This document shows, piece after piece, positions 42,097-63,365 of a stretch of 64,000 nt of DNA. The translations under genes were made by a program, and so were the position numbers. Positions within the stretch are counted from its first letter, which is position 1; the number at the start of each line of letters is the position of its first letter. The notes under the pieces were generated by a model, which made no database searches, had not been told where the DNA came from, and was given only the letters and a program-made list of their open reading frames with translations. Origin of the DNA: Escherichia coli (GTDB lineage: Bacteria; Pseudomonadota; Gammaproteobacteria; Enterobacterales; Enterobacteriaceae); assembly GCF_965641715.1 (NCBI RefSeq), contig NZ_OZ282455.1; one strand, written 5' to 3'.

Positions 42097-42230
42097 TTTA
42101 ACGCTCCGCGCCGAATCGATCCATGATGGATGACTCGACGATTTATGAATCGAACGTACCGGCGCTTGTCCCTGAAACAGTTCCCGGCCCTCGTCCGGAT
42201 AACCTGCAATTCAGACAGGCACATGTGCCC
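42097..42230. repeat. conserved ~135-bp intergenic element, copy A (between traG and traH)
   Basis: Shares TAACGCTCCGCGCCGAA.CGATCCATGATGG and CCCTCGTCC.GA.AA.C.GCA.TTC.GACA blocks with copies at 62168-62300 and 63231-63365. Confidence 0.6.
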
Positions 42231-42285
42231 GTACACTCTTGTATCTTACTGAGTATATCAGAATTTATGTAAATTCAAATATCCT

Positions 42286-42870
42286 CTATGCCTCTTTGTT
42301 GTATTTTCCGTCAAGTATGAGCCGGGTACCATCGTAATGCATGATCAGGGCATCAAGGTACGCCGGTTTGAATTTCTTGCCGAGCCTATCTCTGGCCAGA
42401 AATGATAAACAATGATTATGTGTCATTATTACTATGTTCCTTTTATGAGATTCTCTTGCGATTGATTCAAGCGTCTTATAAAGATCATTATTGCAGTCTG
42501 ATAAACTGTCCATAACGACGGGTTCTTTACCGGAGAAGAATTTTGCAGTTTGTATGGTTCTTACCGCATTGCTGGAGTAAATATCATATTCACTGAAGAT
42601 TGTTGCGAACTTAATACCTTCCTGCTGTGCTTTCTCTGTACCGGTAATAGTGATTCCGCTTTTATCCGAATAGCATGGCATATCTGAACGGTCGCAACGT
42701 TCTCCATGGCGGAAAAGGAAAATAACGGTGTTATCAGCATTAATTTCTTTTGCCTGTTCCAGGGTGATATCGGGAAGCGAGCTTTTTGCTTTTGTCACTG
42801 CCGCTACCAGGAAAACAGAAAATAAAAGAATGAATGCTGTTTTTGAATAAGAAGAACGTGGTTTCATCAT
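42286..42870 (-). CDS. traG: periplasmic histidine-phosphatase-family protein (Ais/PmrG-like) at the traG position
   Basis: Signal peptide plus RHGERCDRS...HNHCL motifs resembling Ais (LPS core heptose phosphate phosphatase) as I remember it; gene name by position only. Confidence 0.55.
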   Translation of the reverse strand: MMKPRSSYSKTAFILLFSVFLVAAVTKAKSSLPDITLEQAKEINADNTVIFLFRHGERCDRSDMPCYSDKSGITITGTEKAQQEGIKFATIFSEYDIYSSNAVRTIQTAKFFSGKEPVVMDSLSDCNNDLYKTLESIARESHKRNIVIMTHNHCLSFLARDRLGKKFKPAYLDALIMHYDGTRLILDGKYNKEA

Positions 42871-42929
42871 GTTATTTAAACTGAATATAAAAATACCCCC
42901 GGGTTTAGTGCCGGGGGCGGGGACAGTAA

Positions 42930-44132
42930 TCAGAAAGTGAACTGAAGTTGTGCCATTGCACCGTAATCGTGGTCAGTTCCTACCAGGCCGGAAACATCGA
43001 TATGTACGACGTCAAATGGAGAGATACCAACGCCAGCGGTGAAGGCGCTTCCGGAGTTTGATGCCATGTTCTGACGATAACCGGCACGCAATTGCGCCCA
43101 TTTCCATGCGTTAAATTCAGCACCAACACTTGCAAACTGACGTTTGCTGTCAGAAGTGAAGCCACTGGCAGGAGTCAGATCAATGTCAAGAGCAGTGGTA
43201 AACAGGTCATTATGCCAGGATACACCGGCGGTTGCCTGCGGACGAACTTTGAAGGTTTCTTTAAAGCCATTGACGACTTTAGTATCAATACTGCGTGGAA
43301 TGATGTTCTGGGCAACAAGACCGACAGTCCAGTTGTCATTCAGGTCTGTATAAGCACCAATATCGGCGTTGAATCCGTTTTTCGTGTTGTGGTACTTGTC
43401 ACCGTCAAAATCGTCTTTGTCGTAATCACGAACCGTTACGTTGTAGTTAAACAGGTCCACACGCTGATATTTTGGTGTGACGCCAAGAGACCATTTTTGT
43501 CCGGCCGTTTCCAGTTCTTTGGCAAATGAAATTCCGACGTCGGTAATTACAGCTGCACGCCCGAATGCGCGTGAGGTCAGGGCATTCTTATCGACGTCGG
43601 TAATTGTTCCATTGGCAACTTTGTCCAGATAATCCAGGTCTGCATCGTTTACTTTTCCGTTTACGCTGACAGTTCCGTAAGACTTGACCATAAGGGCAAA
43701 CGGCAGAGTGTCATTTGCCATGGCTGCTACAGCTGATACACCTACCTGAGCATCTGCATTGATATTGCGGAATTCCTGCAGACGATGTTTAAGATTTGCC
43801 GCTGCCTGTTGTACGCCATGCTGGTTATCTACAGCACTGTCAAACAAATCCCAGTCATCTTTAACATCATCAGCTTTATTTGATACATCATCAGGATCAG
43901 CAACTTGTGCCCCAACAGACGGCAGAAGAAGGCTGAAATCATCATTGCTGTTGTGCTTTGTCAGTAAAGCCGGGTTTGCCAGAGGTGCCACACCATAATG
44001 GGAAGATGCTACCCCGGTACCACCCATTGCATCGTTACGCGCTTCAAAATATGACGTCGCTGCTGCAGCGTTAAAGGAAAATAATACAGCAGATGCAATG
44101 ATGGTGCGGGTAATATGATTTTTCTTCATCAT
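42930..44132 (-). CDS. traF: predicted outer-membrane beta-barrel protein at the traF position
   Basis: 400-aa ORF with signal peptide and C-terminal ...LQFTF terminal aromatic typical of OMPs; name by position. Confidence 0.55.
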   Translation of the reverse strand: MMKKNHITRTIIASAVLFSFNAAAATSYFEARNDAMGGTGVASSHYGVAPLANPALLTKHNSNDDFSLLLPSVGAQVADPDDVSNKADDVKDDWDLFDSAVDNQHGVQQAAANLKHRLQEFRNINADAQVGVSAVAAMANDTLPFALMVKSYGTVSVNGKVNDADLDYLDKVANGTITDVDKNALTSRAFGRAAVITDVGISFAKELETAGQKWSLGVTPKYQRVDLFNYNVTVRDYDKDDFDGDKYHNTKNGFNADIGAYTDLNDNWTVGLVAQNIIPRSIDTKVVNGFKETFKVRPQATAGVSWHNDLFTTALDIDLTPASGFTSDSKRQFASVGAEFNAWKWAQLRAGYRQNMASNSGSAFTAGVGISPFDVVHIDVSGLVGTDHDYGAMAQLQFTF

Positions 44133-44216
44133 TTAATTTCCTGTTTATCAGAATTTAGACAAAACAACGCTATGACACGGATGTGCCGTAATTTTTACTT
44201 TGGTACTATCTGGTAT

Positions 44217-45041
44217 TTACCAGGGTAATAAAGACGTATTAAATAAGCTAACAGGTAGTATTTGCCCTGTAATAAGGTTCCCGGCAAGGCCAGGTCTCAA
44301 CGTGACGCGTCGCAAAGACATTGTTGTATTCTGCCTGGTTGTATATTCAGTTAACCATTTTCTTTTTTCATCGTTCAGAAGTGTTGGTGATAATGATAGT
44401 GCCGGATATATTACAGAGCCATTTATTTCTTTTTTCTGTCTCAATATTACCCCGCAATATTCTCTTTTCGTGTTTCCGGCGAAGGGGAAACTATGCCAGA
44501 AAATAACTTCAGTGTTGCTGCTATCACTAATAAGCATTCTGAAATTATCAGCAGTATCTGGCCATTCACCGGACAACGCTATCGGATAGTTTTCATGGCC
44601 ATTCAGCCAGTCCGGATTGAGATTAAAACATTCAGCAAGATGTTCGAGAGCGTCAGCTGAAAGATAGTCTGCAAGTCTGGCCGGGTCCTGTATAACCGTG
44701 GAGCGGATATTCCATGGCGACAGCAATGTTGCCAGTAATGGCGCATTTATATCATGCGACAGCATGATGTATTCAATTCTGCTTATTATGTTTCCTGTGG
44801 TGTTATCCGCAGGCATAAACATATTATGAAGAGCATCCTCAAGCAGGATTCGGGTTAAATCAGCGGTGGATATGGCTAATTGTTCGCTCATTATCCCCAG
44901 AACTTCTCTTACCCCTTGGGGGTAACGGACCTGCAGAGGTGTCGGGTTTATCTGACGACCGTTGATGAGTTTTTCGCCGATTGCTTTTTTGTCCAGCGAG
45001 AGCATCATTCGGGCCGCAATACCGGTCGTATTCAGTCTCAT
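44217..45041 (-). CDS. traE: hypothetical protein at the traE position
   Basis: 274-aa ORF; name by position only. Confidence 0.5.
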   Translation of the reverse strand: MRLNTTGIAARMMLSLDKKAIGEKLINGRQINPTPLQVRYPQGVREVLGIMSEQLAISTADLTRILLEDALHNMFMPADNTTGNIISRIEYIMLSHDINAPLLATLLSPWNIRSTVIQDPARLADYLSADALEHLAECFNLNPDWLNGHENYPIALSGEWPDTADNFRMLISDSSNTEVIFWHSFPFAGNTKREYCGVILRQKKEINGSVIYPALSLSPTLLNDEKRKWLTEYTTRQNTTMSLRRVTLRPGLAGNLITGQILPVSLFNTSLLPW

Positions 45042-45191
45042 TGTTCCTCCGACTGAAAAAGTCTTTTCAGCTCATGTGGTTATTGTATCTTCGGTGTTTT
45101 TTCTGGTGAAACGAATAATTTCGATCATGCAGATCGAATGTGTTTGGCGAGTTGTTGCAACTCGCCTTTCTGTATGTGTTTTGAATGATGT

Positions 45192-46346
45192 TTACAGCGG
45201 GGTGCTGCCCGGGTTCAGAGGGCAAATCATAATGTAGTCAGGGTCGTTAACAGGTAACGCTCCGGGAGATGGGACACGTTCGCCTTTCTGTGCTGCAATG
45301 GCCAGTGTACGCAACAAAACCTCACTGGCGCGGTGAACTGCTTCCTCTTTCGTTGTGGCAGTGACGTGAAGGTTATCAAAATCACCGATCTCAATACGAT
45401 GCGCTTTCTGCCCATTTTCTTCATCGATGGTCGTGATATGGGCAGGATACGGCACAAACCATGCTGCCACTTTTTGTGTCTGCCGCCGGCGGGCATCAAG
45501 CTTACTGACCAGTTGCCATGCACGAAGATGAGTATACCGTTTCAGCATATTCATGGAACGATGTCCTGATATTGCAGCAATCTCCATTACATTCAGGCTA
45601 CCCAGTTCGAAGAAGCGGCTTATTGCTTCATGCCGTAGATCGTGAAAATGCAGGTCCTCGATGCGAAGTCGTTGTGTGGCTATTCTCCAGGCATTTTTAA
45701 AGCCGGATGCGGTGTAATCAAAAACATTGCCGTGGAGATTAACGGGCATCATCTGAAGAAAGTTACGGGCACGTCTGGACAGAGGAACATCCCGTGAGTG
45801 ACCGTTTTTGGTTTCAGGTAAATGAGCCACACCGTGGCGCAAATCAATGTGCTCCCAACGTAAGGCCAGTATTTCGCCCTGCCGCATGGCTGTCTCAAGG
45901 GCAAGATGGAAAATGACATACAACATCAGATTTTTTTCGCGGAAATAGCGAGAAAGGCGACGTTCTTCTGAAGACGTTAGCCGGCGATCTCGTCCCGAGG
46001 ATACTTTCGGCTTGCGAACCAGTTCAACCGGGTTAGTACGACAGGTTCCCCATTCAACACGAGCAATATTGAACAGAGATGACAGAAGGGCGAGTTCAAG
46101 ACGTACAGTATTACCTGTAATGGGTTTACCCGTTCGGGGGTTGATTTCTGCTAAACGAACGTCTCTGTATGTAGCAATATCAACGGTTGTTATTTCGTCC
46201 ATATTCCGAAGGGCAATGGGATATCGCTTGATAACATTGCTCCGGTAAAACTCCTGTTGATGCCCTTTCTTGTGAACAGAAACTGTTTTCAGGTACTTAT
46301 CCAGTGCGCGTGACAGGGACATTTTACGGATGCGTGGAGACGGCAT
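45192..46346 (-). CDS. rci: shufflon-specific tyrosine recombinase Rci
   Basis: 384-aa product from MPSPRIRK with tyrosine-recombinase motifs ([14 protein letters not shown]); adjacent to 19-bp sfx repeats. Confidence 0.9.
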
Positions 46347-46397
46347 GCTAACCTCAAAAGAGGCAAAAAATAATGCCAACAATCATTCTCTGCAAGC

Positions 46398-46416
46398 GTG
46401 CCAATCCGGTACCTGG
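46398..46416 (+). repeat. sfx 19-bp repeat 1
   Basis: gtgccaatccggtacctgg. Confidence 0.85.
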
Positions 46417-46871
46417 GGCGCTCCTAAAATTCAATTCACAACGCAGACCTACAACATAGCTAAAAACACTCGTAATTTAAGGCTCGGGGTCCATGCATAT
46501 TGCTCATGGACTTACCTGAATGGCTCACCCTTTGGTGGTTTTCAACAGGTATATTCCGACCAAAACAACGTTTGGTATGTGAGTAATTATGCTTGGGGAA
46601 ATTATGAGTCTGGTGGGACCATATCAGTCACATGCCTCAATCTTCCTGGTGCTGGAGCTTAATTAAAGGGGCAACAGTAGGCATCGACATGTTCCTCATC
46701 AACACCATCACCAATACCGTACATGCGTGTTCCAGTCATAATGTATCCAGTCGGACATTGAATCGGCTTGTAATAGATCGAACCACCACTCTTACCGCCG
46801 ATAAAGTGATTCATTGCTACGGATGATTTGTACCAATTACATGCTGAGTAATTAATTTTATTACCCCCTGA

Positions 46872-46890
46872 CCACCGACCGGATTGGCAC
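46872..46890 (-). repeat. sfx 19-bp repeat 2 (inverted)
   Basis: ccaccgaccggattggcac. Confidence 0.8.
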
Positions 46891-46898
46891 TGGCCTAC

Positions 46899-46917
46899 GT
46901 GCCAATCCGGTACCTGG
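46899..46917 (+). repeat. sfx 19-bp repeat 3
   Basis: gtgccaatccggtacctgg. Confidence 0.85.
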
Positions 46918-47404
46918 AAATCATCATCAGCGTCGATATGGACGAATATAAAAACATTTACGTTATATCCCAAAAACACACAGGTCTTAGGGAGGTTTAA
47001 ACTGTGTATTAACACCTATCGTATTGACGGGCGTGAAATGGCAGAAACAGAAGTCGTTCCTATTGACATGCCTGACTCTAACGGCGAGATGACTTGGCAA
47101 GCCAAAAACTACACACAGTATTCGTCCTACTTTATGAAGATTACTTGCTTGAAATAGCTTATTGGCAAATGGCATATACAGTTATTGAACCATTCTGATC
47201 TTCGGTTGTATCGCACGCAGCCGACCATGAGTTATTGGCTGATGGGAATGACCTGGTAAGCCATATGTAACCAGTTCGTGAGGTGCATATTCCGCCGCCA
47301 CCTGTAACACGTTTTCCAGTTGGACAGGTAGCTGTTGCTCCAGGAAAGCGCCAACCTGTGGCCTGTGCTGTAGCAATTTGAAGCTCACCAGATCCTACCT
47401 TTCT

Positions 47405-47423
47405 CCAGGTACCGGATTGGCAC
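47405..47423 (-). repeat. sfx 19-bp repeat 4 (inverted)
   Basis: ccaggtaccggattggcac. Confidence 0.85.
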
Positions 47424-47431
47424 GTAGGCCA

Positions 47432-47450
47432 GTGCCAATCCGGTACGTGG
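47432..47450 (+). repeat. sfx 19-bp repeat 5
   Basis: gtgccaatccggtacgtgg. Confidence 0.85.
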
Positions 47451-47650
47451 GGGACAATAGGTGGAAAACTCAAAGTTACTCAGCTTTCCACCACAGGTTA
47501 TCTGGGGCAATTCGACTTCTGTGCCATTGCCAGAATGGGCAACGCAGAGGATGCCCACTACTGCCAGGTAGTTGAGAGCCCAGCAGGTTCACGCAAATGG
47601 TACAAATACGAGCATAAGACAGGTTGTATTGCGTCGTGTGTAACGCTCAA

Positions 47651-49087
47651 TTAAGTTTGATATCCAAATACTGAAAATACCCCGGCACCACATGATGTAT
47701 TTTCTGTTGGATAGGATGTTATCTGATAGGAAGTACCTGCAGGTACAGCAAAGCTGATAAAGGCTGTTTTTCCATATGCAGGGTTATTACTGGCATTCAC
47801 GCTAATTAGCGTCCCACCAACATATCCCTGCAGTCGGGATGTATTTGCACATGCACCTCCGGCAGATCCTCCATTACCTCCAGATGCATAAATAAACAAT
47901 GTACTGCCCCCTGAATTCCGCCCTGAGAATGAACCTCTATGTGAACCTAAGTTTGTGTAAGAACCATTGAGCGAACCAGAAGTCTTCCACGTACCGGATT
48001 GGCACGAAAGTATTGCCCCTGTATTATCGCGGCCTACAAGGCCGTTAGGCGAACATGATGCGCCAGCAACGGCAGTTCTTTCCAGTTGTAAGTATTCACC
48101 AGTATAAAGGCGACCATCAGCCCGAACAGTACCGCCTTTCACCTGACCGCCGGTATAGATGCCCTTGTTGTTTACACTTCGAACCCATGATCCGTCGGAC
48201 ATATAAAATCCGCCACCGTGAGTTTCATTGAGCCAGCCTTTGCTGTTACGAGTAATTAACCAACCATTATTACTTCTGATATCACCGCCAGCGGTGACAT
48301 TTACGTCAAAGTTTCCGCTATTGCCTTTTACCTGACCGCTGAAAGTGCCATTTACACCATTCACATTGCCGCTGAAATTACCAGTCTGGGCATTTACTGC
48401 CCCAATGTTATTCAGGTTATTTGATCCCATATCAATGGCCGTGTGCATTTTGTTTAAGTCAGGGCGACCATTGACCTGGAATCTGTAAAGACGATCAGTG
48501 TCCTCTGCTGCACCACTAAGTTCATCTGTCGATAACAGTACGGCAATATGCCCGTTACCGCTTTTGGCACCATAATTACTTAAAGCTACTGACCAGGAAC
48601 GTAATGCACCTGTGGCTGTTTTGCCGTCCTGGATATATCCACCAAGACCAGTGGTAATATCCTTAGCCATCTGGATAAGTGCTTTCACTGGATAAGGGGT
48701 GCCACCACTGGATACAACCATTGCCTGTAGTAATTCCGGGTTTTGGGCGTTTCGAACTACATATGCCTGTAACCGCTGCCCCTCGCTGTTTGTCTCAATA
48801 AAGCCGCTGGACAAAAAGCCGGTATTTTTCAGCATGGTTGTCGTGATAACGGCAGGGGTTGATGTGGTACTACTTGCCTGGAGAGTTGTGTAGTTTTTCC
48901 CTATATAAGAGCGGGCTGCACTGGCCCAGTTGCTGACAAGACGAGCTTCAGCCTGCCAACCTTTGGTTTTTAAATAGTCCTGCCATATGCCTGCTCCCCA
49001 GGCAACTATGATCATAACAATCAATAAAGCCGCGCCAATTTCCAGCGATGCCCAGCCTCGGTCATATTTTTTCATCAGATTACCCAT
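47651..49087 (-). CDS. pilV: thin-pilus tip adhesin PilV (constant region fused to the currently adjacent shufflon segment)
   Basis: 478-aa ORF with type IV prepilin-like N-terminus; crosses sfx repeat 6 into the shufflon. Confidence 0.85.
47987..48005 (-). repeat. sfx 19-bp repeat 6 (inverted), junction with the pilV constant region
   Basis: ccacgtaccggattggcac; encodes the ...CQSGTW... junction of PilV. Confidence 0.85.
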
Positions 49088-49731
49088 AGTGGTTGATAAA
49101 GATTATCCAGTAGCAAAAGGACATGGCCAAGACACAGCCATGGACCCAGTGGGCCTTCTTTATGTCCTTTTATGCACCATGTTGAATGCCATAAGACAAA
49201 TCCTCCTGCGCCCAGCAACACACTCCATATGGCGTTATATAGCCCTGACCATGCGGTAATACCTGCAATAAGCCACAGGTCTCCTGTGCCAATATTAAGA
49301 CGATGGCGGTTAACCAGTTTATGCAGACAGAATAAGACAATTGCGGCAGAGACAATTTCTGTTGCACGGAGCCACCATATATCAGTTGTGATTTGTGATA
49401 ATATTCCAGCGATTAAAAAACGCCTGGTGAATGTACCAGGTAAGAGGCCTGTTAGTGCATCCGTTACTGCCATTTGCAGCATGAACGAAAGAATAAGAAC
49501 AGCATGAATACGGTAGAGAAGTTGGGATGGCGATAAAATAATTAATGCCACAGCTATACTATATAGCCATATTCCTGACAGAACTGCAGTGTGTGTCTTA
49601 TACCAGAGATGTTCTGTATCAGATAAAAAATAACGAACTCTGAATAACAGAGTTCGTCCAATAATGGAAAATATGAACATCAATGGGAGGATATAAACAG
49701 GGGAGAGACTTATGCCTACGATTGTCTGCAT
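49075..49731 (-). CDS. pilU: prepilin peptidase PilU
   Basis: Polytopic membrane ORF; start at internal Met gives 218 aa; synteny. Confidence 0.7.
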
Positions 49732-50276
49732 TGTCTGCCTCCCTGCCCGGGAAGGCATATCCCTTTCATGTCACGATAAATTCTCCATACTTTATTAGCA
49801 TATTGCTCTCTTGTTTCATGTCTGTCCTTACGGAATCCGGCATTGTATGATCCAAGGCAATTCCAGCTGACGCCACATATCTGAAAATGTCTTGCCAGTA
49901 TCCAGCTTCCTATATGGATATTAAGACATGGTTTGGTAATTAAATCCTCAGACTTTTTGATTACGCCCATCTTTATAAGCTTTGGAATATGGGTTGAGTT
50001 TATTTGCATCAACCCATAATCCGTACTACTGGCTTTGCCTGTTTTTCTGTCCTTATTTATGTTAATTGCGCCCGGCTTCAATGAAGATTCCCCGGCAGAA
50101 ATGGCCTTCAACAATAATGGTTCAATTTGATAGCGTGCGCCGGCGGCGGCAAAGCAATTGTCCCACTTGTTAGTCCAGATTTGTTTGGGGGCGATGTATG
50201 AAGCTCGGGCGGGATAAATAAGAGAACAAAGCAGGATTAATGAAATAAGTCTGAGGGGCACTTTACCCCCGGACAT
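49716..50276 (-). CDS. pilT: lytic transglycosylase PilT
   Basis: 186-aa ORF with signal peptide and SLT-domain motifs (ES...GLMQIN...Y). Confidence 0.75.
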   Translation of the reverse strand: MSGGKVPLRLISLILLCSLIYPARASYIAPKQIWTNKWDNCFAAAGARYQIEPLLLKAISAGESSLKPGAININKDRKTGKASSTDYGLMQINSTHIPKLIKMGVIKKSEDLITKPCLNIHIGSWILARHFQICGVSWNCLGSYNAGFRKDRHETREQYANKVWRIYRDMKGICLPGQGGRQCRQS

Positions 50277-50285
50277 TAAAACTCC

Positions 50286-50900
50286 TTAGCCATTGATGGT
50301 GAAGATTAGTTTGTTTGTACCGGTGCTGCCATTATCAGCTGTGCATTGCGCACTGGCTTCTTCAGTAGTGACTTTTCCATCATTGTGAGTCGTACTGTTC
50401 AGGGTAATACCGTTAGTTAAACCAGTACGACTGATTTGTGTGGCAATCTGGATACAGGCATCCTGTGGGACTTTTTCATAGGTGACGGTAAAACCATTGT
50501 TGAAACCTGATGTTGAAGCCGGAGCAACAGTTACGGCACCGCCCCATGAGTTATAGAGCGTTGCAGTACCTGATGATGGAGTACCACGCACTGTCATAGT
50601 CTTGGGTACGCCACCCATCTGAATGAGAGCACCCGTCATTTTGGTTCCACTGGTAAACGTATATCCATCGCTACCTTTTAGCAGCCCCTGAGTACTTGTG
50701 ATGATTGTCTGTATGTTCGAGCTTTCATTTGCCACACCGGTTCGTGAACGCAACATATACAATCCACCAAAAACAAGGGCAAGTACGATAATTACAACAA
50801 GTGCTATTGCACCCTGTTCCATAATACCCCAGCCTTTGTCATGAGACGTTTCTTTCTCATTTTTCTTCAGAGCGTTAACATCAATATTTTGGATTAACAT
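50286..50900 (-). CDS. pilS: type IV prepilin PilS (thin-pilus major pilin)
   Basis: Leader followed by G/WGIMEQGAIALVVIIV hydrophobic pilin N-terminus. Confidence 0.8.
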   Translation of the reverse strand: MLIQNIDVNALKKNEKETSHDKGWGIMEQGAIALVVIIVLALVFGGLYMLRSRTGVANESSNIQTIITSTQGLLKGSDGYTFTSGTKMTGALIQMGGVPKTMTVRGTPSSGTATLYNSWGGAVTVAPASTSGFNNGFTVTYEKVPQDACIQIATQISRTGLTNGITLNSTTHNDGKVTTEEASAQCTADNGSTGTNKLIFTING

Positions 50901-53568: not shown

Positions 53569-53578
53569 ATCACATCAC

Positions 53579-55313: not shown

Positions 55314-56988
55314 TATTGCCTCCTGACGGGAAAGTCGGGGTAATGATGATCACAAGCGTGCTGCGTTCATTTTTCCCGGTTTGTGAACCACCAAATAATG
55401 GATTTGCTGGCGTAAATGTACCGGCTTTACTTGTCGTCGTATTGTTCTGATCGAAACCAGTAACGACAAGTGATTGCCCTTCTTTCAGATTGACCTTCTG
55501 GCTCAGTGAACGCAGTTTGGTATATGGCATTTCGATGTAACTGTTTCCGTCTTTTGACGTAAAGCTACGGATAGTTGGGGGATCAGACAGATTAAAGTTC
55601 ATCTGCAACTGGAGATTGCCTGTTTTCTGAATTAAAGGCAGCAGGGTCATATTGAATCCAGTGGTGATCATGCCCGGTGTTAATGTTGTTGTTGCTCCTA
55701 CATCCGTAGTCGTAGTTGTTGCTGACTGGGCGACGTAAACTGTCTGATCTGCCATCTGGATAGGTACCGGCGTCAGGTTTGTGACAGTGCTTTCTTGTGA
55801 AGTTACAACGCTGACATCGCCTTGTTCACTCAGTGCTTTAATCAGAAGGCTGGAACCGCTGAATTTGGCGGCATTCCCTGTTGCCGTATCCAGAATTGAT
55901 ACGCCTGCAGATGTAGCGCCTGTAAAATCTCCGCTTGCATTGTTCAACGTTGCTCCGGCGGAATGTAGCGATTTATAAACAAGGTTCCAGTCCAGACCGA
56001 ACTGTTCGTTTCTGGTATTGCTGACGCTCAGAACCTGTACGTTCAGGGCTACCTGGCGGTTCATAATACTGTTTTGTTCGTCTACATATCGTGCGACGGC
56101 TTCCTGGACAGCTGGAGTATCAGTGACTGTCAGCGTTGAGCTCGATGCAGATAACCAGTAACGGCCTTTTTCTGGTGTCAGCATTGCTTCAATAGTTTTC
56201 CGGATATCTTCATACAGATCGTATTCCTGACCAACGGTTGTGCTCTGAGAGGACGTTGCATCACCGGATGCTGAGTTATCCTGGCCTCCTGTTGCCCCCA
56301 TTGTGCTTGTTGAGCCAGAGCTGACACTGGAACTGCTGCTGGTTTTGGTGTTCAGCATATGAAGTGGATACGTTCTGGTTTCAGTCAGATAGAATACAAT
56401 CCGACCATTATCCATGCGCCAGTACAGACCACTCCGGCTGGCCATCAGATCCAGAAGACCATTGATATCTCCCTGCCACATGAGGTTATTCAGCGTTAAT
56501 GGCTGAGTGGAGGTAGCCATTGTTGTGCTGCCCAGGCTGCTTAACGGTAGACGTCCATTTTCATCTGGTGCTGGTAGTGTTCCTGTCATCTGGCGGGTAG
56601 CGCCTCCTTCAAGAGTTGAATTGGCTGCGTCAGGCGTGATGATCACAGGGATGCCGCATACGGCAGTAATACGTTGCCCCAGTTCCTGCAGAGTGATCTC
56701 TCCTTTTCTTGCCTGCGTGATGTAGCAGGCTGGAGCTGTTTGTTTTTTCTCTCTTGATACCTGAGCGACCGGAACAGGGTTTATCCATTGATTATCGAGC
56801 CAGGTAAGAGCCTGCGATTTACGGGCCGAAAGGGCTGATACCTTTTCCCGTGCATGTGCTGAGTCTTCCTGTGCTTTTTTCTGCATTTTGTTGATTTCGC
56901 TGAAAGTACATCCGGAGATGGAAAGAGCGACGGCGATCATGCAGGGGAGCACCGCCAGCTTCATTGAACGCTGGTGTGATTTTTTCAT
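55306..56988 (-). CDS. pilN: PilN secretin-like outer-membrane lipoprotein
   Basis: 560-aa ORF with lipobox ISGC and secretin-like C-terminal region. Confidence 0.75.
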   Translation of the reverse strand: MKKSHQRSMKLAVLPCMIAVALSISGCTFSEINKMQKKAQEDSAHAREKVSALSARKSQALTWLDNQWINPVPVAQVSREKKQTAPACYITQARKGEITLQELGQRITAVCGIPVIITPDAANSTLEGGATRQMTGTLPAPDENGRLPLSSLGSTTMATSTQPLTLNNLMWQGDINGLLDLMASRSGLYWRMDNGRIVFYLTETRTYPLHMLNTKTSSSSSVSSGSTSTMGATGGQDNSASGDATSSQSTTVGQEYDLYEDIRKTIEAMLTPEKGRYWLSASSSTLTVTDTPAVQEAVARYVDEQNSIMNRQVALNVQVLSVSNTRNEQFGLDWNLVYKSLHSAGATLNNASGDFTGATSAGVSILDTATGNAAKFSGSSLLIKALSEQGDVSVVTSQESTVTNLTPVPIQMADQTVYVAQSATTTTTDVGATTTLTPGMITTGFNMTLLPLIQKTGNLQLQMNFNLSDPPTIRSFTSKDGNSYIEMPYTKLRSLSQKVNLKEGQSLVVTGFDQNNTTTSKAGTFTPANPLFGGSQTGKNERSTLVIIITPTFPSGGNNG

Positions 56989-57001
56989 GAATATATCCAG
57001 A

Positions 57002-57439
57002 TTAGTTAACGTAGACGACAGAACCAGCAGTAATGCCTGCCGGGGGTGTCAGACCGGTTGCAGTTCCTGATAGCCAGGTGAGTTGCCCGTTTTGGAAGAT
57101 CCCTATTAGTGCAGAACCACGACTTTTTGAACGCAAAGTTTCAACAAGTCCTGGTTGTTCAGGCATCCATACCCACAGACGCCCCTGTTGTAACTGATGT
57201 TTAATTCGGGAGTCCGGAGTGACAGGGAGAGCCAGTTTATCTGAGGAAATTACTCCGTCCTGCTGGCCTGATACGTATCTGATATCATTGATTCTATTAG
57301 CAATCATTAGTATCTGACTTGCCCATACAGACGCACTTGCATATTGCTGGGCGTTTGTGGTTTCAGACATCTTCTGATTCTGGTAGCTACCAGTGATAAT
57401 CAGAATGGTCAGGCCGACGGCCATGACCAGCCATCCCAT
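57002..57439 (-). CDS. pilM: PilM
   Basis: 145-aa ORF with N-terminal TM; synteny. Confidence 0.6.
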   Translation of the reverse strand: MGWLVMAVGLTILIITGSYQNQKMSETTNAQQYASASVWASQILMIANRINDIRYVSGQQDGVISSDKLALPVTPDSRIKHQLQQGRLWVWMPEQPGLVETLRSKSRGSALIGIFQNGQLTWLSGTATGLTPPAGITAGSVVYVN

Positions 57440-58506
57440 TAGCGACCATCCCTTGTATCAGAAACTGTAATGATGCACTGCATGCGAGAAGCCTGTGCGT
57501 ATAAAGGTTTTTGCGCAGTCCGATATAACTCAAATACCTGCTCCATGGCTGATTCAAATGATCCCCGGAACATCAAAGGCGCATCAAGACGGTAATCGGT
57601 TACAGAAAGTGGCCATATGACCATCCAGTGCGTTGATGCCATGCTTTCGCATTTTGTTTCTTCTGCCCACTTAATAATGTTTTCCCTTAATGTAGTGCCT
57701 GCCGGCGCACGCCACTCTTTACCCTGAGATACCGGTTTGACAGGTGTCCCGGTCATGAGTGGGATAGACTTGACTGTAGAGCCGGTCGGAGTCGGGATTG
57801 CTGCGGGCGTAGACGGAGATACGCTGTTTCCCCTGAATGGGTTTCGTGGTTTGTTCTGGCTATTTGCTGTCGTTGAAGACTCCGGGGAAGTGGATGTGGT
57901 TACCATGGCTGCTGGCGAGATAGTGGTTGCCGTGTCCTGTGCCGGTGCAGCAGCCGATGTTGTGACGGTCAACATTTTATTATCCCAGTCCAGATGGCCC
58001 CAGAGGTGTTGTTCTTCCAGCAACCGGTTCAGAGAACGGGTCCACTGATCATTGGCAGACCATGAAACCAGTTTGGTATTCAGTTTGGGCGTGGCTGCAT
58101 TCTCTTGTCTGAATTTCCATCCTTCCGGTAGTAATGTTTTTATCCACTGACTGACGGTCCGGTTACGGGCCGTCGGCGATAGTGTTACAGGGGTGCTACC
58201 AGGCTTGCCTGTAATGATTAACCGGGAGAAATTCTGACTTATTGTTGGTGAAGGTAACGGTCGGGATTCGCTTACTGGCTGTGCTGTTTTTACTGTCTCT
58301 GGCACGCTGACTCTCGGGGGCGGAGTTATTTTAGGTGGAGAAAGTCGTTGTTGCGTAAGTGCCAGGACGCCAGCACTCTCACTGATTTGTCCGTCAACAA
58401 AAACCAGAGCAGGCGTATCTGATGGTGCCACGTTATTGCCGCCGGAAATTCCGGCACAGCCGGACAATAATGACGGCAGTATAAGTGTCAGATAGTTTTT
58501 TTTCAT
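57439..58506 (-). CDS. pilL: PilL lipoprotein
   Basis: 355-aa ORF with lipobox LSGC; synteny. Confidence 0.65.
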   Translation of the reverse strand: MKKNYLTLILPSLLSGCAGISGGNNVAPSDTPALVFVDGQISESAGVLALTQQRLSPPKITPPPRVSVPETVKTAQPVSESRPLPSPTISQNFSRLIITGKPGSTPVTLSPTARNRTVSQWIKTLLPEGWKFRQENAATPKLNTKLVSWSANDQWTRSLNRLLEEQHLWGHLDWDNKMLTVTTSAAAPAQDTATTISPAAMVTTSTSPESSTTANSQNKPRNPFRGNSVSPSTPAAIPTPTGSTVKSIPLMTGTPVKPVSQGKEWRAPAGTTLRENIIKWAEETKCESMASTHWMVIWPLSVTDYRLDAPLMFRGSFESAMEQVFELYRTAQKPLYAQASRMQCIITVSDTRDGR

Positions 58507-58834
58507 AACGGAGACTCCGTGTTCGTATATACGTGTTTGTTAGTTAATGCGGACTTTAAGTAAGGGTTCATTATTTTATGTGCAATTGGATGGGTAATGT
58601 ATACCGGTATTGAGAGAATTACTCCTGAATGTCCCGTTTTAGTCGCATTCAGAAGTCTGCTTGGGTCTTTAATATTGTTGATTAGTATTTTCATTATTCT
58701 ATCTTTTGAATTTTAATGTTGCATGTTATTTTAAAGGTGAGGTTGTGGATAGCCAATTAAGCCAGTGTTTTGGGATTTTTTGTGAAAATAAAAATCCTGC
58801 TTATGAGCATTCTTTTTATATCTAAATGTATTTT

Positions 58835-59428
58835 TTAATTGGTGTGGTGGGTCTGGAGAGGACGAATGACGACTGTCATTCCGTCCGAATGCAAATGCGG
58901 GAAAGACCACTGAAACAAGAGATATATAAAAGGAATTGATAATTTTTCGTACAGACTTGTTTTCCGTGGGTATGTAATAACTGAAAAACTCAAATCATAA
59001 GATTCCAGTCTCTTTATAAGTTTATTTATTCTTGCTGGAGTAAAGAGATGTGAATGCATGACAATGATTTCATCATTATTAATTGCTTTTGATATCAGAG
59101 AAAGCAATACATCCCAGTGTTTCCTCATTGACTTCGGGCAACGTGTGTCAGCATAGGGGCTAAGATGTATAGTTGATTTCTTGCTTCCCTTTTTCTTCTT
59201 CACAAAGAATGTGAAGTCGTATTTAGATGCAGACCTTACAATAAGAAGTACACATCTGAAAAGTAGTGGGAAAATGCAAATCACAACCACCACACAGAAA
59301 TATAACATATAAGGCAATGATAAGTTGTCAGTGTATGGATAACGTAAGTATTGCCATGGGGTAGTGATGTACAGACAAAGCGTACACCAAAGCAACCAGA
59401 GATATAATGGTGCGTTATTATTTTTCAT
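58835..59428 (-). CDS. pilK: putative PilK (membrane protein, AT-rich gene)
   Basis: 197-aa ORF with two N-terminal TM helices in AT-rich DNA; name by position. Confidence 0.45.
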   Translation of the reverse strand: MKNNNAPLYLWLLWCTLCLYITTPWQYLRYPYTDNLSLPYMLYFCVVVVICIFPLLFRCVLLIVRSASKYDFTFFVKKKKGSKKSTIHLSPYADTRCPKSMRKHWDVLLSLISKAINNDEIIVMHSHLFTPARINKLIKRLESYDLSFSVITYPRKTSLYEKLSIPFIYLLFQWSFPHLHSDGMTVVIRPLQTHHTN

Positions 59429-59552
59429 GTTGGCTGAGGCAGGCGACTAAAATAACAGACTAAGGAGGATTAACTGTTTAATTCTTTGGAACAAAAAAAT
59501 GCAGTTCCTGATCATCACACACCATTGAATAAACATTTTGCTTCGGTTGCGT

Positions 59553-59852
59553 TCATGATAGCCAGTCCTGTAGATGCTGATGGCGGGAGCTGCTGCCCTT
59601 GTGCCAGCGGCAGTGGCTGCCGGGAGCACGCTCCAGTCGGAACAGAAATCGGTTGTCGCGTAGTACCATCACGAGACAGTTATCCGGCGTGCAGAAACGT
59701 CGGGCAAGCTCATCGGGGTCTGTCGGTGTTTTCGTTGAAAACAGCCTGCGTTTGCAGTGCGTGTCGACGACCAGTACCTGTAGTCGTCCGGGATGTTGCT
59801 GTGGCATCAAAGACTCCTTCCGGAACGGGAAAAGAAGCAGCTGTACCGCCAT
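59553..59852 (-). pseudogene. degenerate partial duplicate of the 5' part of the downstream lipoprotein gene
   Basis: Leader plus N-terminal coding sequence is paralogous to 60400-60710 (HPQVTFTVDTVRTDT vs HPGRLQVLVVDTHCKRR) but lacks the signal peptide. Confidence 0.3.
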
Positions 59853-59869
59853 AACTGCACGTACCGGTT

Positions 59870-59995
59870 GCGAAAAAACGGCACAAGCGAGTAGTGACAG
59901 AAAGAATCCCGGGAACGGCAGAAAGGGGGGTACAGGCTGCGAAGGCGGGACACGGGGTGTGTCGGGAATTAACGCATGTGAGGCGTGATGAGAAC
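59870..59995. repeat. ~125-bp direct repeat, copy 1
   Basis: TTGCGAAAAAA.GGCACAAGCGAGTAGTGACAGAAAGAAT...GGTACAGGCTGCGAAG repeated at 60583-60710. Confidence 0.7.
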
Positions 59996-60520
59996 AACGC
60001 GTTTTTCGCTAGCTCCGCCTCCGGCGAATCCATTCATGACAAGGGACTGTTCCGGTCTGAGAGAAATGCTCTGCTCAACAGTCTGGTTTCGTTTCTGGTC
60101 TGTGGTCGAGAGTCGCAGAGTGATATTTCCGGAGCCCCCCTGAATATCCGGCGATATCTGCATTCTGACATCGGGGGATACATCAGCAGTAAAGGCATCC
60201 GGACCTACGGATGTTACCTGTGATTCAACACAGGACGTATTCTGCATCATCCTGTGGAGCGTTTCAGGTGTCAGCGTCAGGCTGTCATTAAAAAAAGCAC
60301 TGTGTGAAATGACCCCCTGAGCATCGGCAAACAGGTCCGGATGGCGCTCATTAAGAAGGCTTCCGTATTTTTCCGCCAGGCAGATTGGGTTGCTGGCCGT
60401 TGTGTCTGTTCGCACGGTATCGACCGTGAATGTCACCTGCGGGTGATGTTCCCTGTGGCCTGTGCAGCCGGACAGCAGTGCGGCGGCTATCGTCATCCAG
60501 AGTAGTGGTTGTTTTTTCAT
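59969..60520 (-). CDS. putative lipoprotein (pilI/pilJ region)
   Basis: 183-aa ORF with lipobox LSGC. Confidence 0.5.
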   Translation of the reverse strand: MKKQPLLWMTIAAALLSGCTGHREHHPQVTFTVDTVRTDTTASNPICLAEKYGSLLNERHPDLFADAQGVISHSAFFNDSLTLTPETLHRMMQNTSCVESQVTSVGPDAFTADVSPDVRMQISPDIQGGSGNITLRLSTTDQKRNQTVEQSISLRPEQSLVMNGFAGGGASEKRVVLITPHMR

Positions 60521-60582
60521 GCTGTTAATTTCCTCTCAGGGTAAAAAGAAAGACTCGCACCGTCATGTCGATGGGGGGCCGC

Positions 60583-60710
60583 TTGCGAAAAAATGGCACA
60601 AGCGAGTAGTGACAGAAAGAATGTCGGAAACGGCAGGAAGGGCGGTACAGGCTGCGAAGACTGGAAACGGGGTATGCCGGGGATTACACATCCTCAGTGT
60701 AATGTGATAG
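60583..60710. repeat. ~125-bp direct repeat, copy 2
   Basis: See copy 1. Confidence 0.7.
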
Positions 60711-61377
60711 TCGTCTGCTCCTGTGTTGCACCCCAGACATCTTCTGGCAGGCTGGGCAGCCCGATAAATAGGGTGTGAAAGAGGGTTTCTCTGCGTTCGA
60801 TCCCGAATTGATGTTCGTATCCTCTCACCACCTGAAATCCTTCGTCGGAGAATATTAACTCTGCCGTTTCCAGAAGCTGCATAGTTTTGCGGTGTAGTGG
60901 AGTGATCAGCTGCAACGTAACTGGTGCCCTCATATCGCCTGTCGGTAGAAAACACTCTTCGGTGCGACTTAGTTGTAGCAGGTGACGTTTCCCGGAACAG
61001 GCCCGTTCAATGGATTCATTGAACACCCTCTCAGGCCATGGGCAGACATATGTGCGCCAGCCTGCTTTTTGTAATTTACCCAGTGCAGCCCGAAAACGAA
61101 ACAACGGACATTCCCCGACAGTGGCAGAGCTGAGAAAGAGCGTATTCAGCGTTCCGATGATGGGAATATTGCGATCTTTTTCGGTCAATGCTTTTAACGC
61201 CATGATTTCGCCAGGGAGACTACGGAACTCAGGATGTCTGCTGGCACCAGAAAGCCATTCAAGCAGGTAATGCCGTAATCCGGTTTCACTGGTTATATTG
61301 TGGTTTTCCTGTGCCGTTTTCAGGGCATTCAGTGCACACCAGAGCAACTGGCGCACGGGATGTTCTGTCGTGGTCAT
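60694..61377 (-). CDS. hypothetical protein (227 aa) in the tra regulatory region
   Basis: ORF only; no family recognised. Confidence 0.45.
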   Translation of the reverse strand: MTTTEHPVRQLLWCALNALKTAQENHNITSETGLRHYLLEWLSGASRHPEFRSLPGEIMALKALTEKDRNIPIIGTLNTLFLSSATVGECPLFRFRAALGKLQKAGWRTYVCPWPERVFNESIERACSGKRHLLQLSRTEECFLPTGDMRAPVTLQLITPLHRKTMQLLETAELIFSDEGFQVVRGYEHQFGIERRETLFHTLFIGLPSLPEDVWGATQEQTTITLH

Positions 61378-61593
61378 GCGAATGTCCTACTGTGAGATGA
61401 AAAGAAGACCGGTATCCGCTCTCTCCGCCACACGTGATGGCACGGGCCGGCCTTTGATAAAACGAATCAATACTCTGGGGTGAAGCCTTTTATTTCTTTC
61501 GCCATTAAGAAATACACGATTCCATCAAAAGACAGGGGGAGTCCATGGTGGGGATGGCTTCGTGCAGGCTTCACTCCAGAATATTCTCTGAAT

Positions 61594-61621
61594 TGAAAAA
61601 AGCCCGGCCCGAAGGCCGGGA
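61594..61621 (-). terminator. rho-independent terminator immediately downstream of the NusG-like gene
   Basis: GCCCGGCC-CGAA-GGCCGGG hairpin followed on the minus strand by T6. Confidence 0.6.
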
Positions 61622-61629
61622 AATACTGG

Positions 61630-62184
61630 CTATGGGATGTTTACAAGGCGCTCCATAAAGCCGTGATGTTCGGCATTTGATACCAGTTCCAGGAGCAGGG
61701 ATATCCTCGACTCAGGCTGGAGAGTATTTTCCATTCTGAGGAGATACTGATATTGTGCTTTTGTCAGCCATATGCTGGAAGCCGCATTCAGCTCTTCCCT
61801 GGCTCCCGGATTTAGCACAGGGTCCGGGTAAATCTTCATTAATCCATCAACAATATCTTTATTGACGGGTTTTATTTCACCGCCAAACTTCACGAAATCA
61901 ATGAAGGCGCTATGGCGACGTAATGCCGATACTGGTTGAATGTCAAAATTAGCCAGAATAAAAAAGTACCCTGGAAAAATAGCGAATATTCTTTCACGGT
62001 AACAGCGCCTGGAGTCTGCCCGTCTTATCTTTCTTGTTATTAATGGAGTCCATGGTACGACGTTTTGCTCATTCAGCCATGAGAATAAAGATTCTCTGTT
62101 TTTGCCGGCTGTATTATATTGCGCAAGATACCAGTTCCGGTTATTCAGGTGTTCTATATTCACGAAGTTCAACGCTCCGCGCAA
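61630..62184 (-). CDS. traB: RfaH/NusG-like transcription antitermination factor (likely TraB)
   Basis: N-terminal NGN-like WYLAQY...LFPGYFFI and KOW-like FVKFGG motifs; track ORF begins at a TTG, true start uncertain. Confidence 0.6.
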   Translation of the reverse strand: MRGALNFVNIEHLNNRNWYLAQYNTAGKNRESLFSWLNEQNVVPWTPLITRKIRRADSRRCYRERIFAIFPGYFFILANFDIQPVSALRRHSAFIDFVKFGGEIKPVNKDIVDGLMKIYPDPVLNPGAREELNAASSIWLTKAQYQYLLRMENTLQPESRISLLLELVSNAEHHGFMERLVNIP

Positions 62185-62300
62185 AACCGATCCATGATGG
62201 ACGATTTTGCGATGTCAGGCGAATATGCTAAATCATATGTCTGAAGCAGTGTCCAGCCCATATCTGGATAAACTGCAGTTCTGACAGGCATATAACCAGC
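62168..62300. repeat. conserved ~135-bp intergenic element, copy B (at the 5' end of the NusG-like gene)
   Basis: See copy A. Confidence 0.6.
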
Positions 62301-62604
62301 AGACTCTAGTACGTTCTGTATCGGTGATTTGGCGAACTCACAGATAAAGAACGGCTAAGCACTAATATCAGCAATACAGTGGCACAGTATTGTGATACGC
62401 GAAATAAAACATCAGCACGTCAGTTCAGAGTAAGATCGCCATATATCGGGCATGAGCCAGATACAAATAACTGGGACACCGTCTGAAGTGATTTGCTTTA
62501 TTAAAGTAACTTGTGCTTGGTGTTTATGTTTATCAATTTGGGATCGCCTGTAAAGTGCAAAATGCAATTTCCATGAAAGTGTCCCCTTTAATGGGGACAC
62601 CTGT

Positions 62605-62913
62605 TCACATTTTTTCGTTTTCTTTAGCTGTATTGCTAATCATGAAAACGAAAGTTCGCATCAGCACAGCAGAGCGAAGTGCATCATATCCTTCCAGATT
62701 TAAATTCTTCAGGCTTCGCTTCAGGTAGGTTCGTACCGTTTCGGGAGAAAGCCGACAGTTCTGAGCAATGGCGTCGTAAGGAACACCCATTGCGTAAAAA
62801 ACGCAGACTTTAAGCTGGTTTGTTGATAGCTCGGGAAACATGCCTTCCAACAGAGTGATGGCCGGGAGTTTCTGTATCAGTTGAGGTGACATAGCAAAGG
62901 TCTCCGATGACAA
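62605..62913 (-). CDS. LuxR/GerE-type HTH transcriptional regulator (tra regulatory gene)
   Basis: C-terminal HTH pattern LKVCVFYAMGVPYDAIAQNCRLSPETVRTYLKRSLKNL. Confidence 0.55.
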   Translation of the reverse strand: MSSETFAMSPQLIQKLPAITLLEGMFPELSTNQLKVCVFYAMGVPYDAIAQNCRLSPETVRTYLKRSLKNLNLEGYDALRSAVLMRTFVFMISNTAKENEKM

Positions 62914-63230
62914 CTAAAAACGCTATCACCGAGTTCCTACGCTCATTGGTGATAGCCCAGACGGGGGTAGGAATACCGGCGTCATCGGAAACCGGCCAGG
63001 CTAATGCCTGCCCCGCCTGAGCTACCATAGATGACGACAAGAAATACAAGTTCCTGTCTTTATGGTATGGCAAAAAACGACGCCAAATGAAGAAATTAAC
63101 TTCTGCGCCGACGATGACTACGCGGGTTCCTACGCCCGATCACAGTTTTGCCTGTGACCAGTAAAGGGTACTTAGTATAACGCACCGAGTCAACTAACAG
63201 CTTAAAAAACATACAAAAAAGCGTCAAAAC

Positions 63231-63365
63231 TTAACGCTCCGCGCCGAAGCGATCCAGGCATGATGCTTCTGCTTTGTGGCGTTCGAACATGCTGGTCCAT
63301 ATGCACGAAACGGTGTCTGACCCTCGTCCAGACAATCCGCAGTTCTGACGAACATATGAACAAAT
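63231..63365. repeat. conserved ~135-bp intergenic element, copy C (upstream of the LuxR-type gene)
   Basis: See copy A. Confidence 0.6.

Follow-up and report, generated by a model that had tools for sequence, protein, structure and literature searches.

A covarying two-hairpin leader element with an ops-format tail, present three times on an IncI1 plasmid, as a candidate loading site for the NusG-family protein TraB

In this study, we analyzed a repeated element of ~148 nt found in the conjugative transfer region of a 64-kb stretch of Escherichia coli DNA (contig NZ_OZ282455.1; hereafter the window) and its possible relation to the plasmid-encoded protein TraB. The window belongs to an R64/ColIb-type IncI1 plasmid. 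Its 3 kb from 61000 to 64000 showed 99.9% identity to hundreds of E. coli and Salmonella IncI1-type plasmids carrying traA, a NusG-family gene (traB) and traC. The region of the first copy (c1) was 100% identical to R64 (NC_005014.1), and the third copy (c3) was 100% identical in ColIb-P9 (NC_002122.1) and in ~1,390 IncI1 records, with no annotation beneath it. All tra and pil genes lie on the minus strand. Along it, starting from the repZ side, come first c3, then a terminator-like hairpin and a C4 antisense-RNA module, followed by traA and a further hairpin, by the second copy (c2) and traB, by traC, pil and the following genes up to a traG-like open reading frame (ORF), and lastly by c1 with traH onwards. 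The copies and the genes that frame them are the following.

42097..42245, minus strand: c1, whole element, between the traG-like ORF and traH (covariance-model match of 164 bits; alignments)
62168..62313, minus strand: c2, whole element, the leader of traB (covariance-model match of 150 bits; same position in orthologs wherever the element was found)
63230..63378, minus strand: c3, whole element, on the repZ side and upstream of both the C4/Hft module and traA (covariance-model match of 153 bits)
42870..42286, minus strand: traG-like ORF, 194 aa
41891..41433, minus strand: traH
61630..62163, minus strand: traB, an RfaH/NusG-family paralog and the proposed factor for the three sites (Pfam NusG; RfaH-family matches in PDB; NusG-family annotation in matching plasmids)

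The initial annotation had reported three repeats, and the same three were recovered here. A covariance model built from the three copies (R1), run over the whole window with filters off, returned them at 150-164 bits, with the next best match at 10 bits, and the exact 12-mer GCGCGGAGCGTT and its core GCGGAGCGT occur in the window only within these copies. The boundaries first given were nearly right, except that ~13-15 nt were missed at the minus-strand 5' end, a portion in which the conserved ACAAGAG lies, along with the outer stem's 5' arm. Mean column identity of the three copies in alignments was 75-82%, and their pairwise identity of 65-69% is about the same as the distance to orthologs in other genera. 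Plain blastn found near-identical IncI1 copies only and did not link c1, c2 and c3 to one another, so that covariance models were needed. Rfam 15 gave no match over the copies at the gathering threshold in a search of the whole window, and none over c2 and c3 at E<=10. No extra copy was detected ahead of pil, traE, trb or nik, in the leading region, or before traH in other plasmids, also when a broader model (R2) was used and filters were off.

Regarding position, c1 does lie in the traG-traH gap as described, 40 nt past the 194-aa traG-like ORF and 206 nt before traH. Copy c2, placed at the 5' end of the RfaH/NusG-like gene, is indeed at traB, but as its leader rather than as part of the gene, since 4 nt separate the end of its tail from the GTG at 62163, the start codon that the pESBL annotation gives as well. 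Copy c3 is upstream of traA, the LuxR-type gene, but not directly so: ~317-338 nt separate them, occupied by the terminator-like hairpin and the C4 module.

A coding role for the element was considered and rejected. Program-listed ORFs overlap all copies (70 aa at 42024-42236, 40 aa at 62169-62291 and 74 aa at 63202-63426, all on the minus strand), yet the 70-, 40- and 34/74-aa frames are unconserved, and stops interrupt every frame in most homologs. The longest possible traB ORF (from TTG 62184) and some RefSeq traB annotations (e.g., locus L005, 19851-20441) run into the element; these are likely mis-annotations caused by an open frame through the tail.

The distribution of the element follows that of traB. 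TraB homologs in PLSDB formed tiers from 100% down to ~47% identity, with IncX ActX/PrfaH below them at ~33%. We compared loci from IncK2/Z, IncI-gamma/K1, Citrobacter, Enterobacter, Klebsiella and Serratia plasmids, and scanning species-representative genomes brought in Yersinia ruckeri, Erwinia, Pluralibacter and more contigs of Citrobacter and Enterobacter. Outside IncI1, wherever the TraB homolog reached at least 47% identity, the locus carried exactly one element, which always ended 0-4 nt before the traB start codon. The element, which the initial annotation proposed to look for in related plasmids, is therefore present and conserved there, at the traB leader. IncK-type plasmids carry it while traA is absent. 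With R2, no copy was found before traH or traA in other lineages or in the IncI1 leading region; plasmid regions of the MPF_I (mating pair formation type I) class without traB contained no element with filters off, and the IncX3 prfaH locus gave no covariance-model match. The additional copies, before traH and upstream of the C4/traA module, thus belong to the IncI1 backbone only. Because the single copy elsewhere always stands at traB, the traB-leader copy (c2) is the ancestral one, and c1 and c3 are IncI1-specific duplications, which are old given that the 65-69% identity among the copies resembles their distance from orthologs in other genera.

On the minus strand all three copies adopted the same minimum-free-energy (MFE) RNA fold (z from -2.6 to -3.3), whereas the plus strand gave poorer and inconsistent folds. 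From 5' to 3', the element consists of a short single-stranded ACAAGA, a hairpin of ~85 nt (P1), a linker, a second hairpin of ~32 nt (P2) and the single-stranded tail GCGCGGAGCGTT. P1 has three tiers, with a conserved 8-nt asymmetric internal loop (YUCNGAAYU) and a variable apex. The parts of each copy, and the two loci in which P1 is reduced, are as follows.

42152..42238, minus strand: c1 P1, internal loop UCUGAAUU (shared MFE architecture; compensatory pairs; de novo recovery)
42109..42140, minus strand: c1 P2, 3' arm ending at the first G of GCGGAGC (fold, covariation and de novo recovery)
42100..42111, minus strand: c1 tail GCGCGGAGCGTT, mini-hairpin core GCGGAGC at 42109..42103 (exact match)
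62221..62306, minus strand: c2 P1 (fold and covariation)
62180..62211, minus strand: c2 P2 (fold and covariation)
62171..62182, minus strand: c2 tail GCGCGGAGCGTT, core at 62180..62174, GGAG 11 nt before the traB GTG at 62163
63285..63371, minus strand: c3 P1 (fold and covariation)
63242..63273, minus strand: c3 P2 (fold and covariation)
63233..63244, minus strand: c3 tail GCGCGGAGCGTT, core at 63242..63236 (exact match)
L004 19881-19966: element with reduced P1, Klebsiella pmk1
L003 605-706: element with reduced P1, E. coli pRHB40-C09_2

Compensatory changes were already present in 11 of the 45 pairs among the three copies alone. In an alignment of 20 sequences (19 distinct rows) from about ten genera, fitted to the covariance model, standard pairs filled 85.8% of cells, against 33-40% when partners were slid by 1-3 columns, and changes on both sides were seen in 37 of 45 pairs. 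The covariation score was 0.395 versus 0.05-0.08 in the slid controls, and none of 500 shuffles reached any observed measure. Compensatory changes affected 19 of the 22 outer and middle P1 pairs and 11 of 13 pairs in helix 4 (P2). Since this alignment was model-fitted, an independent retest was made with MAFFT and RNAalifold on the raw sequences, which returned the same P1 tiers and P2 de novo, 15 of 27 pairs being compensatory. The comparison across related plasmids suggested in the initial annotation therefore revealed a conserved and strongly covarying structure in 19 distinct sequences. G.U pairs (81) far outnumbered A.C mismatches (29), which identifies the tra-sense strand as the functional one. 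The retention of fold and tail in three diverged copies indicates selection on each of them. P1 was reduced to a short simple hairpin in the two TraB plasmids that are most distant, while P2 and the tail were kept; the minimal conserved unit is thus P2 plus tail. A pseudoknot between the internal-loop GAAC and the P1-base GUUC was considered as well, and inspection of the alignment showed no covariation for it.

The tail varies within narrow limits. GCGGAGC-GTT was found in IncI1, IncK and Klebsiella pmk1, with GCGGAGC-CTT also seen; GCGAAGC-GTT in Citrobacter and Enterobacter plasmids and pRHB40-C09_2; and GCGAGAGC-(A/G)TG in Serratia, Yersinia, Erwinia and Pluralibacter. GCGNAGC or GCGNNAGC is thus present in all 19 distinct sequences, the loop being G, A or AG. 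These are the sequences of a defined mini-hairpin DNA with two G-C pairs and a sheared G.A pair, whose melting temperatures are 76 C for GCGAAGC, 73 C for GCGGAGC and 71.5 C for GCGAGAGC; the review that describes them does not mention RfaH or ops (PMC13037366). In the RfaH:ops structure, the non-template strand forms a hairpin with stem C3:G8 and loop G4-A7, of which RfaH reads only G5 and T6 (PMC5995543). The E. coli ops consensus GGCGGTAGCGTG holds GCG-GT-AGC followed by GTG, its core being GCGGTAGC-GTG. The tail variants match both the mini-hairpin format and the layout of the ops hairpin, and the tail therefore represents an ops-format site with a different loop. The closest variant, the tail of locus L018 (GGCGAGAGCGTG), is identical to ops at 10 of 12 positions. 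T6 is missing from all tail variants, while RfaH ops proper (GGCGGTAGnnTG) needs invariant G5 and T6; the tail would consequently be no RfaH target but a paralog-specific site.

Possible features of a transcriptional pause were noted around the tail. Of the consensus pause signal (G at -10/-11, pyrimidine at -1, G at +1), every copy has the first two, as G at -10 and T at -1, and c2 and L018-type tails alone have the third. P2 extends with its 3' arm to the first core G, which is -9 to -11 from the U(s) of GCGUU when the pause position is assumed from ops, so that the geometry of P2 appears to be that of a class I (his/opsX-type) pause hairpin. In all lineages 9-12 nt separate the GGAG/GAAG of the tail from the traB start, and the tail is invariant in c1 and c3 even though these have no ORF or start codon at a traB-like spacing. 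Other ops-format motifs in the window were rejected as candidate sites, a bare GCGCAGCGTT at ~32542 lying inside a 429-aa ORF and a bare GCGAAGCGT at 4432 being at chance frequency; the remaining GCGNAGCGT matches were likewise at chance level, the sole one on the tra strand within a gene. The tail showed no boxA/nut resemblance.

TraB and TraC have been known since 1993 as essential activators of the IncI transfer genes, and TraB carries the Pfam NusG NGN domain. A TraB profile matched RfaH-family chains in PDB, with E = 9e-14 for 9ik0 and E = 3.5e-7 for E. coli RfaH over residues 9-164. We mapped the RfaH ops-contact positions onto the TraB homologs and drew a neighbour-joining (NJ) tree without support values. 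In TraB proteins whose sites have loop G, RfaH positions 23/24 are Glu-Gln and position 71 is Arg, or Cys in one subgroup; where the loop is A, 23/24 are Asp-Arg and 71 is either Ala or Gln. The loop-A/Asp-Arg state occupies two separated clades. This thin but suggestive pattern hints that TraB residues co-evolve with the loop base. The functions of plasmid NusG paralogs have been described as awaiting experimental assessment (Wang et al. 2020), and we found in the literature no description of the element, of a TraB target site or mode of action, or of transcription start site or RNA-seq data for these leaders. TraA activates traB, and this activation needs an unmapped 54-bp upstream stretch (PMC5801416). 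In Klebsiella pmk1 (L004 16328-17417), a ProQ/FinO-family gene stands beside a second DUF2913 (TraC-like) gene, near rep and traB, a possible indication that RNA chaperones act together with proteins of the TraC type.

Downstream of the tails, the copies differ. Two of them run into hairpins:

63205..63240, minus strand: terminator-like hairpin that uses the c3 tail as its 5' arm, GGAGCGTTAAGTTTTGACGCTTT plus T-run (10 pairs, loop of 3, T-rich tail)
42087..42106, minus strand: weaker hairpin over the c1 tail, GAGCGTTAAAGATTACGCTC then ATATTCGTTTT

A terminator hairpin with U-tract is absent after c2 and all orthologs, where traB starts at once. The attenuator proposed in the initial annotation therefore suits c3, and c1 weakly, but not c2 or its orthologs. 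The shared promoter proposed as the other option found no support, as no sigma-70-like site occurs at a fixed position and the outer stem covaries, which requires this stem to be part of the folding, active strand; the sigma-70 candidate with TACAAG as its -10 was rejected, its motif really being ACAAGA with the final T missing and a variable 17-20 nt to CGCCAA. The resemblance to ops fared best: an ops-like recruitment site for the NusG-like factor is favored by the format of the tail, the linkage to traB in ~15 diverged plasmids, the homology to RfaH and the co-variation of residues and loop. Its limit is that the ops-like part amounts to ~12 of ~148 nt and leaves the covarying two-hairpin RNA structure unexplained.

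Taken together, comparison of these sequences makes it reasonably probable that the element works as a module of several parts in the 5' leader, by which RNA polymerase is loaded with TraB where long transfer units begin. RNA polymerase would transcribe P1 and P2 and then reach the tail, where the non-template strand in the bubble may fold into the GCG-G-AGC mini-hairpin, in the format of ops with another loop. The GCGU(U) sequence and the just-completed P2 RNA hairpin, its base ~9-11 nt behind the RNA 3' end, could hold the polymerase paused while TraB recognises the exposed loop base(s) and binds the paused complex. The TraB-loaded polymerase would then resist Rho-dependent and H-NS-type polarity, and perhaps terminators. 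In this scheme, c2 would load TraB for traBC-pil-traEFG, c1 would load or reload it for the type IV secretion system (T4SS) operon from traH onwards, and c3 would load it for the C4/traA unit. The traB start 9-12 nt past the GGAG/GAAG of the tail means that the site would also make traB autoregulated, as with IncX3 prfaH and Bacteroides upxY. At c3, loading might turn termination into read-through and so give positive feedback on traA, the activator of traB; this is the weakest step of the proposal.

Several observations weigh against loading of TraB at the element. RfaH performs poorly against intrinsic terminators (PMC7819879), which weakens read-through at c3. An ops-type mechanism needs the tail alone, so that the ~85-nt P1, the most conspicuous conserved part, is left over. 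Consensus scans found no promoter within 100 nt upstream of the copies, and beyond c2 just one other lineage (L018-type tails) has the consensus-pause G at +1. The GGAG of the tail might be just a distant Shine-Dalgarno sequence for traB. The correlation between residues and loop rests on about two independent transitions in the unsupported NJ tree, and the clade with AG loops is mixed. Finally, the locus of a Cedecea sulfonylureivorans TraB homolog (43% identity) had no recognisable element with R2; on this contig (L024 2650-3000), the leader of the TraB homolog has no GCGNAGC motif, and this homolog may use a different site.

As for P1, the largest part of the element and the one with the strongest covariation, it is most plausibly a 5'-terminal stabiliser, an anti-Rho structure, or a second site of contact with protein or RNA. 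Its variable apex and its replacement by a short hairpin make a generic role plausible, as a stabiliser or a block to Rho loading, but its invariant internal loop suggests a specific contact instead. It is conceivable, though rather doubtful, that P1 is an RNA recognition module, with TraB or its obligatory partner TraC (DUF2913) recruited or retained by nascent RNA together with the non-template DNA signal. If so, the element would be a hybrid of RfaH (DNA) and LoaP/put (RNA) and a new class of processive-antitermination RNA specific to MPF_I conjugative plasmids, and the terminated c3 transcript could also titrate the factor as free RNA.

Other explanations of the element must be weighed against TraB loading. 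The leader might act purely as RNA, as a cis-regulator or small RNA that binds TraC, a ProQ/FinO-type protein, Hfq or another RNA and thereby controls mRNA stability or traB translation; the tail GGAG would then be the ribosome-binding site, c3 with its terminator would yield a free small RNA of ~170 nt, and no TraB would be loaded. We hold this to be unlikely. It would account for the RNA-type covariation with its many G.U pairs, for the spacing of GGAG/GAAG to the traB start in all lineages and for the terminator-like hairpin after c3, and Poidevin et al. (PMC5801416) mention unpublished hfq effects on traA and traBC expression that fit it. Yet the c1 and c3 tails are invariant without a start codon at that spacing, and variation of the tail only within GCG-N(1-2)-AGC with an ops-like GT flank is predicted neither by a Shine-Dalgarno sequence nor by RNA pairing; the variable apex of P1 and its shrinkage to a 7-bp hairpin also speak against it. 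With regard to P1, such an RNA role and TraB loading are compatible.

Two further alternatives place the function in DNA. The minus strand is the transferred strand (T-strand), as judged from the positions of the leading genes and nikAB (plus strand) and of the tra genes (minus strand), and transcription of leading-region genes uses the T-strand as template (PMC12672017); the element might thus serve in the recipient as a single-stranded signal, either a G4-type single-strand initiation (ssi) priming site for complementary-strand synthesis or a hairpin promoter for early transcription. GCGNAGC and GCGNNAGC mini-hairpins do mark the primase start site of phage G4 and ssiA (PMC13037366), and the size, multi-hairpin layout and three dispersed copies resemble G4-type origins. 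We nevertheless judge such a role improbable: the tail keeps a fixed distance from the traB start wherever the element was found, the linkage to traB is strict with none in MPF_I regions lacking that gene, and no copy lies in the leading region, the home of single-stranded promoters. DNA folding parameters moreover fail to reproduce the common fold, giving diffuse ensembles (c3 z = -0.9), G.T makes up 11% of paired cells, and a hairpin promoter there would run antisense to the tra genes. Still less credible is a promoter or operator in duplex DNA bound by TraA (LuxR-type) or TraC, with ACAAGAG and a CCGCCAA box as recognition sites. ACAAGA(G/A) is nearly invariant at the 5' edge, the CCGCCAA(GAG) box lies 25-28 nt upstream in most copies, and TraA-dependent activation of traB requires the unmapped 54-bp upstream stretch (PMC5801416). 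Compensatory changes and the excess of G.U over A.C make no sense for duplex DNA, however, c1 has no CCGCCAA box, IncK-type plasmids have the element without traA, and sigma-70-like hexamers at fixed spacing are lacking, so that a duplex site would at most account for the 5' edge rather than the whole element.

The proposed loading of TraB through the tail finds a close parallel in RfaH/ops, for which a role in the F tra operon is also known. The two factors are homologous, both sites stand in leaders of long horizontally acquired operons, and both are non-template-strand sites whose core GCG-loop-AGC-GT is able to expose loop bases as a mini-hairpin. Unlike ops, the element has G, A or AG in place of GT in its loop and lacks the T6 that is inserted into the RfaH pocket; TraB is plasmid-encoded, its gene lies directly downstream of its own site, and ~130 nt of covarying RNA precede that site. 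Contact residues differ as well, K10 being N or I in TraB, H20 being W and R73 being S. In Bacteroides, experiments on the class-1 opsX of UpxY showed three parts together: a GCG..AGC hairpin in the non-template strand, a pause hairpin in the RNA that comes up to -12 to -9 and, downstream, the gene of the paralog itself (PMC11685472). The element shares this combination of DNA hairpin, pause hairpin and own gene, and Bacteroides likewise has several paralog-specific sites per genome. The differences lie in the phylum and operon type, the lack of an evident UpxZ-like inhibitor beside TraB, one factor with three near-identical sites as opposed to many factor-site pairs, and the extra large P1; for TraB, pausing and binding are predicted.

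The PrfaH protein of IncX3 (ActX family) is recruited to a non-template stem-loop in its own 5' untranslated region (PMC11880322). Like TraB, PrfaH belongs to the plasmid NusG paralogs and is essential for conjugation, and its recruitment site, as proposed for TraB, stands in its own leader and is co-transcribed with T4SS genes. Its site, unlike the element, has the unrelated sequence TCGGGGTCATCCGAG with a 6-nt loop and no covariance-model match, occurs once, at -42 to -25 versus about -23 to -12, and serves a plasmid of MPF_T rather than MPF_I.

Structured leader RNAs, namely the LoaP leader hairpin and the HK022 put RNAs, help to modify polymerase in processive antitermination, and in lambda Q-qut with tR' an adjacent downstream terminator gives a short RNA unless the factor is loaded, as is likewise proposed for c3. 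None of these has sequence or structure similarity to the element, and Rfam gave no match. The JUMPstart element in Rfam is also a leader that is conserved and for which a hairpin surrounding an ops sequence has been proposed, but it had no match at E<=10 over c2 and c3, and the TraB element is far larger and organised differently.

What appears to be new here, from sequence comparison, is a paralog-specific site of the ops/opsX class with an added conserved RNA domain and its IncI1-specific triplication. IncI-complex plasmids are among the main carriers of ESBL (extended-spectrum beta-lactamase) genes and of other resistance genes in E. coli and Salmonella. Three exactly placed candidate sites for loading come out of the analysis, along with a simple proposed rule of recognition, in which the loop base of GCG-loop-AGC corresponds to the TraB residues at RfaH positions 23, 24 and 71. 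In the operon map that it yields, c3 would serve C4/traA, c2 traBC-pil and c1 traH onwards. The analysis also suggests that RfaH, UpxY and TraB all read variants of one ultra-stable DNA mini-hairpin.

The region between c3 and traA contained a match to the phage-P1-type C4 antisense RNA (RF01695; 77.5 bits, 63032..62945, minus strand), together with sub-threshold c4-a1b1-like (63171..63119) and isrK-like (63158..63073) matches on the minus strand. The Hft region of pESBL (35394-35663) corresponds to 62915-63184 of the window, 270 bp that are filled exactly by the C4/a1b1/isrK matches. Transposon insertions in Hft raised transfer of pESBL ~20-fold and traA expression ~50-fold, and the published Hft papers do not mention C4. 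These insertions, like the X2 point mutation, probably abolish the function of a C4-like RNA that represses traA. An identity of Hft with c3 was rejected, as Hft maps to the C4 module 45 bp downstream of c3; the superspreader region is now placed beside this copy. The same C4 arrangement, with repeated GTGAGAAC boxes, precedes the traA homolog of Citrobacter p112298-KPC (L002 1260-1470).

Several smaller features surround the copies. On the minus strand, a CCGCCAA(GAG) box (~63398-63404 and 62338-62343) precedes ACAAGA by 25-28 nt in c2, c3 and most orthologs, not in c1, and stands at the same position in L002, L008, L010, L011 and L018-L022; it may be an activator site for TraA or TraC within the 54-bp TraA-responsive region. 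Just upstream of c3, at 63384-63413, a perfect 11-bp inverted repeat (TTGTTACACAA-N8-TTGTGTAACAA) holds the CCGCCAA box in its loop; it is operator-like and was flagged as terminator-like on the plus strand by a scan. Directly past the traA stop, a hairpin GTGTCCCCATTAAAGGGGACAC was observed at 62575-62604 (minus strand), and at the same place in L002 a clearer terminator (GCACCCCTTAAGGGGTGC plus T-run) follows traA, which suggests that traA and traB may be separate transcription units. Elsewhere in the window, Rfam matches at the gathering threshold comprised the sok antitoxin RNA at 18044-18201 (plus strand; a pnd/hok-type system in the trb region), the AgrB antisense RNA at 18826-18913 (minus strand) and the repZ pseudoknot at 63885-64000 (plus strand, cut by the end of the window), all of which are ordinary IncI1 features.

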